Shown here: piece by piece, positions 45,177-64,000 of the stretch | Layout of the letters: each line of letters starts with the position of its first letter | How positions within the stretch are numbered: position 1 is the first letter of the stretch | DNA from: Aquificaceae bacterium | Lineage (GTDB): Bacteria; Aquificota; Aquificia; Aquificales; Aquificaceae | Length of the DNA stretch: 64,000 nucleotides | Direction of reading: 5' to 3' | Assembly (NCBI GenBank): GCA_037925075.1 | Contig: JAXSNR010000002.1 | Coordinates: forward strand, 384,001-448,000 | The notes under the pieces: model-generated | Told to the model about the DNA's origin: nothing | The model's input: the letters and a program-made list of their open reading frames with translations, nothing else | The model's database searches: none | Made by a program: the position numbers and the translations under genes

Positions 45177-45776
45177 TTAAATTATAAGGCTTACCCTCAA
45201 ATCTCCGTATGGTCTTTCCTGCTCTATGTCCACAAGCCCATCCTGATATAAAACCATAAGAGCCATGAGGTAAGGCACAAGGCTCTTCCCAAGAATAAGT
45301 TCGTAAAAGGAAAAAACTACCCCTTCCTCTTTCAGCAAGCCTCTAAGCTCTTCAAGGGCATCCTCAAACTTGGATATATGCAAAGGGAAACGTCTTTCCC
45401 TTGTCCTTTCTCTGGTTACCTTAATCGTTGGCCTTTTTATGACCCTTTTTACCCTCTCTATCCTCTGGCTTATTTCTTCTTGCACATGCTCCTCTTGACC
45501 TTCAAACTGCTCAATTATTTCCTCAAGGGTTAGCCTTTTTCTTTCTCTTTTTTGCTTTGGTTCCGGGAATAGCACCTCCGCCTGCTTTTTTAACAAAAAG
45601 GACGCTGCAAGCACCGCCCTTGCCGGCACCCTTAGGTCCAAAAGCTCATGCCTTCTTATCTCCTCCATGTAAGCCTTTGCAAGGGCAGATATATCCACAT
45701 CCCAAGGGTCAAGCTTTCCTTCTTCTACCAGCCTATAAGCAAGGGCAAAGGGGTGGTCCTCTTCAAACCTCCACAT
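45177..45776 (-). CDS. scpA: Segregation/condensation protein A
   Basis: [10 protein letters not shown]-terminal [10 protein letters not shown]. Confidence 0.85.
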
Positions 45777-46596
45777 GTCTTCTCCAGTAGGTGGTAAGTT
45801 TTATAAGCTGATGCAAGGTATCCTTTAGGTCCTTTCTGTGGACTACCATATCCACCATGCCCTTTTGTATGAGAAACTCAGAGGTTTGAAAGCCCTCTGG
45901 TAGTTGCTGTTTTATTGTCTGTTCTATGACCCTTGGTCCCGCAAAGCCTATAAGAGCCTTAGGCTCTGCGATGATTATGTCTCCCAAAAAGGCAAAGCTT
46001 GCGGACACTCCACCGGTGGTAGGGTTTGTAAGCACGGTGATGTAAGGAATGCCCTTTTCCTTTAGGTAGCCCACACCTATGGAGGTCTTTGCCATCTGCA
46101 TCAGAGAGAGAATTCCTTCCTGCATACGAGCACCGCCCGAGGTTATCACCGCAATGAGAGGCACTTCCTTTTCACCGGCACGCTTGCATGCCCTGTAGAA
46201 CTTCTCCCCCACCACAGAGCCCATACTACCACCTATAAAGCCAAAGTCCATAACCGCAAGCACCACCCTTTCGTCCTTGAGAAACCCTTCCGCCACTAAC
46301 AGAGCTTCAGAAAGACCCGTTTGTTCCTGAGCTTGCTTTAGACGGTCCTTGTAGCTTTTTGTATCCTTGAAGTTAAGGGGGTCCGTAGGTCTTATGTTTT
46401 CAAAAAGAAGCTCGTAGTTTTCAAGAAGATGTTCAAGCCTTTCCTTTGCTGGCATGTTAAAGTGGTGCTGACACTTGGGACATACATTCAGATTTGCCCT
46501 CAGCTCAGGAATGTACAGGATAGACTTGCAGTTTTCACACTTAGTCCAAAGGACTTCCTTTTCTTCCTTTTTCCTAAACCTATCAAAAAAGCCCAT
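45763..46596 (-). CDS. accD: Acetyl-CoA carboxylase carboxyltransferase beta subunit
   Basis: WTKCENC zinc finger, GGSMGSVVGE, SGGARMQEG, GFAGPRVI. Confidence 0.97.
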   Translation of the reverse strand: MGFFDRFRKKEEKEVLWTKCENCKSILYIPELRANLNVCPKCQHHFNMPAKERLEHLLENYELLFENIRPTDPLNFKDTKSYKDRLKQAQEQTGLSEALLVAEGFLKDERVVLAVMDFGFIGGSMGSVVGEKFYRACKRAGEKEVPLIAVITSGGARMQEGILSLMQMAKTSIGVGYLKEKGIPYITVLTNPTTGGVSASFAFLGDIIIAEPKALIGFAGPRVIEQTIKQQLPEGFQTSEFLIQKGMVDMVVHRKDLKDTLHQLIKLTTYWRRHVEV

Positions 46597-46675
46597 GCTA
46601 TAAGATTATACGAATGCCCTCAAGGTTTGTGCCTGATTTCTAAGTGGCAAGAACCCAAAACTTTACCACCAAAAT

Positions 46676-47226
46676 TCAACAGACCTCCAAATAGCCAAAG
46701 CCTTGACCCGTCCTCAACCCAAGCCCATACTGATAGACAAACTCTAATATTTGGGGATTGTCTGTGATTATACTAAACCTTCCAAGAAAAGCCCTTATGT
46801 AGCCTCCGTAGTGCCTTATAAGTTCTTCCTTGAAGTGTTTAAATACGGGGGAAAAGACTTTTATTTTTGGCTCATAGCCTTTTATAGCCTTAAAACGCCT
46901 TTGTATGTTTTCAAGAAGAACTTCTTTAAAGTCTTCTTCTATGGGAATGGCATATATTAGCTTGGGATTGTCCTCATAAAAACCAGGCCTCTCAACCACC
47001 ACAGGAGAAAGGGTTTTAAAGGTACCCTTTGACCAATCCTTTTCCTCTTCTAAAATTATTTCCTTTATAATAAATTCCGCATCGCCTATTTTATGGACCT
47101 GACCTTTTAGACCAATAAGCCCGTTGTATAGCCTTACTCCGTACACTGGATCTCCCGTAGAAATGCGTAGGTTTAAGAACTTTACACCTTTAATAGTTTC
47201 CTCTTTAAAGACTACATGCTTTCCTT
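46676..47226 (-). pseudogene. cas6: CRISPR-associated endoribonuclease Cas6, 5'-truncated orphan
   Basis: C-terminal G-rich loop GLGLRTGQGFG and TLSPVVV; the frame stays open upstream (LNLRISTGDP) only to about 47226, then enters a CRISPR repeat and a stop. Confidence 0.8.
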
Positions 47227-47255
47227 GTTGCTAATCTACCGTGTGGAGTTGAAAG
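47227..47255 (+). CRISPR. Solitary CRISPR repeat (second repeat family)
   Basis: GTTGCTAATCTACCGTGTGGAGTTGAAAG, 29 bp, closely resembling the Aquificae GTTCCTAATGTACCGTGTGGAGTTGAAAC repeat as I recall it. Confidence 0.75.
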
Positions 47256-47324
47256 CAAATTGCATACATGATTTTCTGACTGCCATCATTGAAGAACTGG
47301 CAAGCTCAAGTTTAATATTCAAAC

Positions 47325-48224
47325 ATGCGTTGGATAAGGCTAAAAAGAAGCAAAATAAAAGTCTATGGTAAACAAGGGAAACTGCTTTCAAAGGGCATGG
47401 CGGAAGAACACACCGCCTTTTTGCACAATCTCCTTAGCAACGATATAAAGGGAATGAAAGAAAACACCTTTACCTACAACCTTTGGCTGAGACAGAACGG
47501 TTTTCCCTTGGGTGAGTTTTATGTCTATAAGATAGGAGACCAATATCTACTTGATACTTCTTTGGAAGCTAACTATGTTATTGAGGAGTTTAACCGCCTT
47601 AAGCTTTCTATGAGGGTGTACTTTGAAGCCCTTGATATGGAGCATGTTTTTCTGTTTGGAGAGGGTGTGGGGGAGTTTATCAAAAGCCGTTTTGGTGTGG
47701 AGCTTAAGGACTTTGAAGTAAGACAATTGGATGGTGTTTTTCTTGCTTGCAATTCCCTTAGGCTGAGGGAAGAGGGGTATGAAATCATGGGCAAAGCCCT
47801 TGAAATTTCTTTGGAGGACAAAGCCATGCTATCCGAAGATGAGTATGAACATATACGCATACAAAAGCTTATTCCCAAGCTTGGAAAGGAGCTAAAGGAG
47901 GGCTTTTCTCCTTTGGAAGCCTGTCTTTTAAAGGACGCTATCAGTCTTACAAAGGGCTGTTATGTGGGGCAGGAAGCCATAGCAAGGGTTTATTACAGAG
48001 GGAGGCTTCCAAGAACTCTGGCACTTTTTGGGGGAGAGGGTCTATCTGAGGGTGAAAAGATAAGGCTTGAGGGCAAGGATATAGGGGTTATAACCTCTGT
48101 AAGCCCTATAAAGCCTATTGCTTTGGGTTATGTCTTGAGGGCAAAGGTGGAAAGTCAAAGGGTCTTTGAAACGGACAGGGGAAACAGGGTAGAATTTTTA
48201 AAGTCCTGTGATGAGGCTCTCTGA
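47325..48224 (+). CDS. ygfZ: YgfZ/GcvT-family folate-binding Fe-S repair protein
   Basis: KGCYVGQE signature. Confidence 0.9.
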   Translation: MRWIRLKRSKIKVYGKQGKLLSKGMAEEHTAFLHNLLSNDIKGMKENTFTYNLWLRQNGFPLGEFYVYKIGDQYLLDTSLEANYVIEEFNRLKLSMRVYFEALDMEHVFLFGEGVGEFIKSRFGVELKDFEVRQLDGVFLACNSLRLREEGYEIMGKALEISLEDKAMLSEDEYEHIRIQKLIPKLGKELKEGFSPLEACLLKDAISLTKGCYVGQEAIARVYYRGRLPRTLALFGGEGLSEGEKIRLEGKDIGVITSVSPIKPIALGYVLRAKVESQRVFETDRGNRVEFLKSCDEAL

Positions 48225-48497
48225 AGAGGAAAAGAGGTGCCTGAAAAGGGCTCTTGAGGGCTTTGAGGGTGAAGTGTACCTTTTTGGGTCAAGGCTTAGG
48301 GATGACCTAAAGGGGGTGATATTGACCTTTTGCTGGTGCCATCAAAGCCAGAAAACTCCATGGAGCTTGCCCTCAGGATTCAAACAAGGTTTTTCATGGA
48401 ATGCGAGCAAGACGTAGATGTGCTTGTCTACAGGGATACGGACTTTTTTAGGGAGATCCTCAAACATGCAAAAAGAATCTATCCTGAGGAGCTTTGA
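48211..48497 (+). pseudogene. Minimal nucleotidyltransferase (MNT antitoxin), frameshifted
   Basis: YLFGSR...KG then, in a shifted frame, GDIDLL...DVDVL; one G missing in the G5 run at 48312-48316. Confidence 0.8.
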
Positions 48498-48899
48498 AGA
48501 CCTTCTCAAAAGCAAAAGGCTGTTGGACGCTTCTATAAAAGGCTACACACCTTATGAACCATACAAAAGCTATGAACCAGAAGAGCTTGAAAAGTACGAT
48601 GCCCTTAGCTTTAGGTTTGAAAAGTTTGTGGAAACCGCACTGAGCTTTTTTGTATCCCTTGAGCTGTATCTCTTTGGTGAAAAATCCGACACCTTAAGAG
48701 GTAGGCTTCTGAGACTACAGAGGGCTGGGTATGTGCAAGATGTGGAGCTTTGGCCTTCCGCAAGGTTTTGAGAAACAAAATAGCCCATGCTTACCTTCCG
48801 GAAGAGTTGGTTGAGATTTTTGAAAGCCTTATGGCTATTTCAAAAAGGCTTTTTGAAGAAGTAGAAAGCCTAAGCCATAAGCTCAAAGCTCTTCTATAG
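48466..48899 (+). pseudogene. HEPN toxin, frameshifted
   Basis: RFEKFVE helix; catalytic RNKIAH(AY) lies in a shifted frame after the T4 run at 48766-48769. Confidence 0.8.
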
Positions 48900-63142: not shown

Positions 63143-63504
63143 TACCCATCAGAAGTGCGGTAGGCTTTTGGGAAAAAGAGAAAATACGAAGGCATGCACA
63201 AGGTCGTTTTTTAGAACAAAAGCCTTGTATAATATATGTTAAAAAGGTTAGGGGCAAAAAGCCCCTTGACATCTTGGCATTTGAATAGGGCTTTAGCTAT
63301 GCCATAAAGCCATAAAGACATAATTACGGTTTTACGGTAATACGGCGTAGGCTTAAAAGCCTTGTCTCTCAATGGTTTAAATTTGACAATAACATACTCA
63401 ATTTTGCATGACCTGAGGTTTTTGGCAAACTACCTTCATTTGAAAGGGGTGGGGTATTGATAAAAGCTTTGATAGTTCTTATTATTTTTTATGTGCTTGT
63501 GCAG
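63143..63504 (+). promoter_or_regulatory. CRISPR leader with sigma70-like promoter
   Basis: AT-rich non-coding region; TTGATA(63457)-17 bp-TATTAT(63480) ends 19 bp before the first repeat. Confidence 0.7.
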
Positions 63505-63998
63505 GTTTTAAGCCCACTGTGAGGGATGGTGACTAGTCCTCTATTATGCCATCATACGGGGCAAAAATGAACTGTTTTAAGCCCACCGTGAGGGATGGTG
63601 ACCTCAATTAACTCCTGCATTGTTAAGCATTGTTTAGTTTGTTTTAAGCCCACCGTGAGGGATGGTGACGCTTCATGGCTTTAACCTCCTTTAAGGTTTA
63701 TTCTTAGTTTTAAGCCCACCGTGAGGGATGGTGACGCTTCATGGCTTTAACCTCCTTTAAGGTTTATTCTTAGTTTTAAGCCCACCGTGAGGGATGGTGA
63801 CCTCAATTAACTCCTGCATTGTTAAGCATTGTTTAGTTTGTTTTAAGCCCACCGTGAGGGATGGTGACTCACGGTCATTCAAAGGGCAGTGGTTGGAGTT
63901 GTCAGTTTTAAGCCCACCGTGAGGGATGGAGACATAATAAAAGCCAGCCCGCTCCAGTCGTAGTTGTAGTTTTAAGCCCACTGTGAGGGATTGGAAAC
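63505..63998 (+). CRISPR. CRISPR array: 8 repeats and 7 spacers visible, probably continuing beyond the window
   Basis: Repeat GTTTTAAGCCCACCGTGAGGGATGGTGAC (29 bp) starting at 63505, 63574, 63641, 63707, 63773, 63840, 63905 and 63969; spacers 35-40 bp. Confidence 0.98.
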
Positions 63999-64000
63999 GT

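Follow-up and report, generated by a model that had tools for sequence, protein, structure and literature searches.

The window analysed here is a stretch of 64,000 nucleotides on contig C2 of an Aquificaceae genome (G000; 1.60 Mb in four contigs, 99.95% complete). The locus of interest lies between accD (acetyl-CoA carboxylase beta; 45763..46596, minus strand), an open reading frame matching PF01039 and PF17848, and ygfZ (47325..48224, plus strand; TIGR03317 above cut-off). From left to right, the interval holds a minus-strand remnant of cas6 (46676..47224) that corresponds to codons 51-232 of its orthologue and is 62-76% identical to the intact 232-aa Cas6 of the genus, two stray bases, TT (47225..47226), a single leaderless copy of the canonical type I-B repeat of the genus (47227..47255, plus strand), a 21-nt trailer (47256..47276, plus strand), and the conserved upstream region of ygfZ (47277..47324, plus strand), in which a TGAC-N-TCATTG motif is followed by TAATAT. 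Further right, two ORFs at 48208-48800, a short one that is nucleotidyltransferase-like and its partner, look frameshifted, as read from their translations. The junction exists as DNA and is not an assembly artefact, because a contig from a separate study's run (run X5, study P2; four of seven runs examined) spans 46992-47416 with 0 differences.

The cas6 frame is open on the minus strand from 47227 to a stop at 46676, and is closed upstream by a TAG within the complement of the repeat. It matches Cas6 profiles (PF01881, E 1e-25; TIGR01877, 90 bits against a cut-off of 58.65), retains the C-terminal G-rich loop and contains no internal stop or frameshift; with the start codon and the first 50 of 232 codons gone, it does not encode a complete two-domain Cas6. 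A sequence-only reading of the window had described cas6 as intact to about 47226 and running straight into the repeat. The open frame and the Cas6 identity stand, but homology to intact cas6 stops at 47224, 2 nt before the repeat, and the bases TT intervene. Codon 50 is Leu in all of the 12 intact cas6 loci compared, and TT fits neither this codon nor the repeat. The concern that cas6 orthologues might be naturally this short is removed by their length of 232 aa in the genus, and the reading of a deletion survives this check. A GTG at 47146 could start a 156-aa product from the remnant. Compared with the relative G016, the remnant shows 56 silent and 44 changed codons (62 and 61 between G016 and G003); as there is no clear excess of amino-acid changes, the comparison shows neither selection nor decay. 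Most named records of related cas6 genes are from Aquificaceae or Aquificales.

Identity of the repeat

The 29-nt repeat is present on the plus strand as first described, and its membership of a CRISPR repeat family is borne out by arrays in its own genome and in relatives. A search of the genome for arrays with the same repeat found a two-repeat mini-array with leader (G000:C1:554086-554180), the first repeat of which (554152-554180) is identical at 29 of 29 positions; the same repeat occurs in relatives' type I-B arrays, which are linked to the type I-B operon in the genus and whose leaders fix its orientation. A 28-nt repeat pattern (up to 3 mismatches) matches 14 of 25 genus genomes, including G000 and mostly in arrays, while the reversed control matches none. 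In view of this identity and distribution, the repeat is not a chance resemblance. It had been called solitary, which holds for the window, where no second copy was found, but not for the genome, which carries the mini-array as well as two degenerate solo copies (C1:655298 and C1:655674). An Rfam scan of 46500-47600 gave three chance hits and no CRISPR family, and the fold of the repeat is not stronger than that of shuffled sequences (z -0.1).

As originally noted, the repeat differs from that of the array at 63.5 kb (63505..63999, plus strand), which is of context interest only. That other family also occurs next to a type III-like operon and a second cas6, both retained in this genome (G000:C2:450-456 kb; gene names reflect our reading of the proteins). 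The array contains an internal duplication, with two spacers each present twice, and becomes degenerate towards its end. Arrays of the two repeat families have nearly identical leaders (window 63250-63504; G000:C1:554181-554400; C2:451170-451421), likewise in relatives, which suggests that one adaptation module, now gone from G000, was shared by both.

Sequence downstream of the repeat

The stretch of about 40 nt after the repeat, initially taken to be spacer-like, is better described as the 21-nt trailer followed, from 47277, by the upstream region of ygfZ. Of 15 relatives, 9 have a TGAC-N4/5-TCAT(T/G)G motif ahead of ygfZ, in an unchanged register in those most closely related, and none of the 15 carries a repeat within 400 nt. 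In the window this element (47277-47291) lies about 47 nt upstream of ygfZ, and is possibly a regulator site or promoter element. The trailer weakly resembles the last codons of a ubiB-like gene, the similarity being significant in one of the four relatives compared (shuffle p 0.0015, 0.12, 0.79 and 0.82). This gene precedes ygfZ in G011, G019 and G023 and follows a solo repeat in G002; it has no match in G000.

These observations bear on the proposal that the locus still functions, either as a one-repeat regulatory cr-like RNA or through a retained truncated Cas6. Precedent exists in type I-B loci, where, according to the accessible part of a preprint (bioRxiv 10.1101/2023.03.03.530964), repeat-like elements are enriched near cas6 (27%) and mini-arrays target cas6 promoters. 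The window repeat resembles such mini-arrays and standalone repeats in lying outside an array and beside cas6; moreover, it is canonical in sequence, the cas6 remnant is stop-free with a possible GTG start, and the genome encodes a second Cas6. Unlike the regulatory elements described there, however, it has no second repeat-like unit enclosing a spacer, no leader, no spacer complementary to a PAM-flanked promoter, no conservation and no type I-B effector, and the break in cas6 lies at the repeat itself. The supposed spacer had no genomic target at any of four stringencies (first 11 nt, exact; 14 nt, 1 mismatch; 18 nt, 3 mismatches; 25 nt, 6 mismatches), the post-repeat sequence varies among the scars of relatives, promoter-like sites number 3 against 1.7 +/- 1.1 by chance, and the open cas6 frame is equally compatible with a recent deletion. 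We consider continued function of either kind very improbable, and caution against taking every isolated repeat next to cas6 for a regulatory RNA. In another lineage, a solo repeat lies downstream of cas6 and ahead of the main array's leader at seven loci (L101:7100, L102, L103, L105, L120, L124:479 and L130:326; absent from L098, L099 and L104), and would make a more plausible regulatory cr-like RNA than the window repeat does.

Reconstruction of the lost locus

Among the relatives' loci for which upstream DNA was at hand, cas7 starts divergently just upstream of cas6 in 8 of 11; the position of cas7 is occupied by a repeat in G002 and by other genes in G009 and one G019 paralogue. The full arrangement is seen in G016, where cas6 is followed divergently by cas7, cas5b, cas8b1, cas3, cas4, cas1b, cas2, the leader and the array, an operon typed as I-B by TIGR02585, 01895, 01908 and 03641, and where 7681 nt separate cas6 codon 51 from the first repeat. 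The window shares with this locus (Cas7/Cst2/DevR, Cas5b, Cas8b1/Cst1, Cas1b) the same cas6 clade (76% identical) and repeat family, but lacks its effector and adaptation genes, leader and all spacers. In G000, tblastn gave no match to the Cas7, Cas5, Cas8, Cas3, Cas4, Cas1 or Cas2 proteins, and no PF01867 (Cas1) match was found in this 99.95% complete genome (control matches in 7 of 14); a DevR search also gave no match, but its control matched in only 2 of 14.

On this comparison, the locus is, as far as its sequence can tell, a dead, non-functional remnant of a type I-B (Cas8b1/Cst2) CRISPR-Cas locus. Since in relatives cas6 stands at the head of a divergent I-B operon to which a leader and an array belong, we regard it as very probable that a deletion of about 7-8 kb, running from inside cas6 to the 5' edge of a repeat, took the divergent cas7-cas5-cas8b1-cas3-cas4-cas1-cas2 genes, the leader and array, and that leftover spacers collapsed by repeat-repeat recombination. 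The earlier suggestion that a deletion removed the 5' end of cas6, the leader and most of a divergent array is thus upheld as to the scar, but the loss was probably larger, given the divergent cas7 in 8 of 11 relatives and the whole operon in G016, and no spacer is left. It is important to note that in the relatives compared accD and ygfZ do not lie next to each other, so that the pre-deletion state of this site is reconstructed and not seen. No intact CRISPR locus lies between accD and ygfZ in the relatives examined, and no intact allele of a close strain was found among 24 genus genomes, 77 metagenome loci, 21 genome loci and four of seven runs. A metagenome scan with the window's Cas6 protein as sole query gave no match and was rerun with an alignment.

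Ectopic integration of a repeat, or of a repeat with a spacer, into cas6 had been offered as an alternative. A leaderless repeat within a gene would fit such an off-target event, and at the L101-type loci of the other lineage a repeat plus about 40 nt occupies a site that is empty in L099 and L104. In the window, however, cas6 does not resume past the repeat, its first 50 codons have no copy anywhere in G000 (best E 0.3-0.8), and there is no duplicated target; we give this alternative hardly any credence.

Recurrence of repeat-edge junctions

The deletion scar is not confined to this site. In the survey, first repeats were listed in 90 clusters, of which 53 follow a leader; the 37 others and 24 further clusters made 61 to be inspected. 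Sixteen junctions, in which the upstream DNA has a homologue lacking a repeat after it, were kept by hand. Left out from the 37 were five clusters without a homologue, one with a variant leader, six copies of one conserved solo repeat, two beside an inverted array and ten that were array-internal; the 21 left out of the 24 were leader-preceded, array-internal, duplicate or without a homologue. Many of the junctions come from metagenome bins or contigs.

By blastn, homology ends exactly at the first base of the repeat in 7 of the 16 (G010 cas3, G078 cas7, G002 intergenic, and leader-side DNA of G024, G064, L086 and L127) and at -2 in two more (the window and L118), hence within 2 nt in 9 of 16; the remaining seven end at -5, -6, -9, -15, -25, -29 and -51, most of which reflect distant homologues. 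The window junction is accordingly not base-exact, having 2 foreign nucleotides. Assuming that breaks fall evenly along a 36-nt spacer, P = 1e-7 for the seven exact ends and 1e-6 for the nine within 2 nt, figures that are too strong because the genomes are kin and the assemblies binned. In G010, where cas3 abuts an 8-repeat array, the stump matches intact cas3 with 100% identity as far as the repeat; as intact cas3 continues AGG and the repeat reads GTT, the junction has no overlap with the repeat. Other scars join cas6 to a repeat in G019 (where cas6 reaches the repeat at protein level, while G019 L047 has 29 foreign, non-leader bases), the cas6-cas7 intergenic region to a repeat in G002, cas7 to a repeat in G078 (100% complete, on contig C1 of more than 1 Mb), and leader fragments to repeats in G024, G019, G018, G064, L086 and L118. 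The far ends thus vary, falling in cas6 (three different sites), intergenic DNA, cas7, cas3 and leaders. G000 itself holds a second, older and more decayed scar, a cas6 3' remnant against a degenerate repeat at C1:655.7 kb, where G016 carries its I-B operon.

The pattern is neither universal nor strictly one-way. Of 99 cas6 matches in L063-L160, 69 are full, 24 are cut by contig ends and 6 are internally cut; among the latter, a repeat stands at the break in one and is lacking in three, and the other two are fragments of a single frameshifted gene. Losses of the cas operon without a repeat occur in G009, and as cas6 tails in L128, L131 and L133. Junctions also occur at the 3' edge of the repeat (L086, repeat against cas1; L136), so the edge pattern does not run in one direction only.

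Several of these loci show further features. In L086:1-1300, cas1 is interrupted by a cas6 tail, leader-side DNA, a repeat, a cas1-matching spacer and a repeat, with both outer edges joining host DNA exactly; a second cas1'-cas2-cas6-leader-array follows the interrupted cas1, and this metagenome contig may be a chimera. Genes are also found between two lone repeats: a HicB-like antitoxin after the cas7 stump fused to the first repeat in G078 (L205:1302-2250), a 255-aa protein without Pfam match in G024 (L045:2171-3115), and, in G000:C1:655298-655794 (L211:1800-2295), a 105-aa ORF without Pfam match that follows the cas6 remnant with its degenerate repeat and precedes another degenerate repeat. 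These genes could be captured long "spacers" or remnants of neighbouring arrays.

Origin of the junctions

Three accounts of how a deletion comes to end at the edge of a repeat were weighed. The first is recombination between a self-derived spacer and its protospacer: a 37-nt spacer taken from cas6 would recombine with cas6, delete the intervening DNA and leave cas6 against the next repeat, which predicts a junction at the repeat edge. Spacers matching CRISPR-locus DNA do exist (from cas1 in L086, from an array end in L136), and CCT lies exactly 37 nt upstream of the window repeat (23% by chance on this cas6 strand), 37 nt being the second commonest spacer length (336 of 1186; 36-38 nt in 922 of 1186). 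For the sister repeat family the PAM is CCN: its 1185 spacers gave 13 viral matches, of which 11 have it, and that family's Cas1 and Cas4 share about 64% identity with their G016 counterparts (Cas4 63-65%). For the exact window repeat, a G003 array had no phage match and an L110 array only unrelated weak matches; all 13 viral matches belong to the sister repeat. Across 13 junctions (L047, L206 and the other-family L127 excluded), however, CCN stands at 36-38 nt in only 2, where chance gives 11-23% each and this account would lead one to expect about 66% (P = 2e-4). No dinucleotide is common to more than 5 of the 13, the freshest junction (G010 cas3) has no CCN at 34-41, and the two foreign bases of the window are not predicted. 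With CCN at chance level, self-spacer recombination was rejected as a general rule, and for the window we think it improbable. The self-derived spacer of the L136 array has its counterpart at the end of other CRISPR arrays; the match lies on the opposite strand, has 0-1 mismatches and is flanked by CCA.

The second account is an ordinary microhomology-mediated deletion, ending by chance in the last bases of a spacer and involving no Cas1. It accommodates the two stray bases, as a spacer ending TTCCTT could have paired with cas6 TTTCC; imprecise and repeat-free losses are known (L047, G009, L128, L131), and alternative end-joining after self-targeting is reviewed in PMC6990116, in the part available. 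However, a break within 2 nt of the edge would arise by chance in about 8% of cases, yet is seen in 9 of 16 junctions, and the clearest of these (G010, G078, G064) have no overlap with the first bases of the repeat. We hold this account to be unlikely, though less so than recombination with a self-derived spacer.

The third account involves the CRISPR integrase. The first base of the repeat is the site at which Cas1-Cas2 carries out leader-side strand transfer. In one variant, a free chromosomal 3' end in cas6, arising from a break (for example after self-targeting), would be transferred to the repeat like a one-ended prespacer; in another, a nick or half-site at the repeat edge would become a break and be joined to the resected end. 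The sequence alone does not separate the two. Survivors may be favoured, as a single event would both repair the break and remove the system. The two stray bases could be what is left of the end of a prespacer or spacer, or could have arisen later by substitution, and the remaining spacers would have been lost through recombination between repeats. Adjacent deletions made by transposons likewise have one end fixed at the strand-transfer site and the other variable.

The Cas1-Cas2 account has a partial biochemical counterpart. In the accessible text of PMC8390005, Cas1-Cas2 of S. pyogenes performs one-ended insertion and hydrolytic disintegration at the leader-repeat junction in vitro, similarly fixing one end at the strand-transfer site and leaving the other variable; that work differs in using short protospacers in vitro and a type II enzyme, and the word "deletion" is absent from its main text as accessed. 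Against the account, S. epidermidis escapers lost their locus through insertion sequences, homologous regions or cassette excision, according to the portion of PMC3784566 at hand. Our literature search, which fell short of most subscription journals, found no published Cas1 mechanism for such deletions, no report of Cas1-Cas2 transferring a kilobase-long end and no account of solitary repeats in Aquificae.

Given the scar, we judge it rather more probable than the contrary that Cas1-Cas2 fixed the repeat-side end of the deletion. The best explanation of the locus as a whole, a I-B deletion scar with Cas1-Cas2 chemistry at the repeat edge, we would put only slightly above an even chance. More speculatively, and in our estimation somewhat doubtful, in living cells Cas1-Cas2 might act as a one-ended joining enzyme on chromosomal ends, with repeats as programmed breakpoints; it would delete its own cas operon at the 5' edge, join host DNA at the 3' edge (L086, L136, and at the present locus possibly the repeat and ubiB tail), and leave lone repeats with genes enclosed by them (G000:C1, G078, G024).

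Relation to known systems and significance

The closest pattern in print is that of the "deletions of the Cas machinery" in Salmonella type I-E loci, in which, as described in the accessible part of PMC3356390, one end is fixed at a direct repeat, the other is scattered in a distal cas gene, and the operon is lost with a stump left behind; no mechanism is given in that part of the account. The Aquificaceae scars likewise show variable far ends in independent events, with loss of operon and leader. They differ from the Salmonella deletions, as far as these are described there, in being of type I-B, in a stump that is the 3' part of a divergent cas6, in an array reduced to one repeat, in occurring twice in one genome, and in far ends that also fall in cas7, cas3 and leaders. 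The single repeat also recalls a collapsed array, in which one repeat is left after all spacers are lost (PMC7056967, in part); such an array keeps its leader and can be refilled, whereas the window repeat is leaderless and G000 has no Cas1.

Taken singly, this locus is a case of ordinary decay. Seen together with the other scars, it has something to say about the way in which CRISPR-Cas systems disappear. What is new here is the addition of type I-B and a distant phylum to the repeat-edge deletion pattern, together with a negative PAM test. That junctions keep falling at the repeat boundary itself is a hint that the CRISPR integrase takes part in deleting the system to which it belongs, and the finding of the same breakpoint in Aquificaceae type I-B loci, far from enterobacterial type I-E, points to the shared component, Cas1-Cas2. 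If Cas1-Cas2 does join chromosomal ends to repeats in living cells, an enzyme would be driving both the loss of CRISPR loci and the rearrangement of genomes, and would be doing so as a general route.
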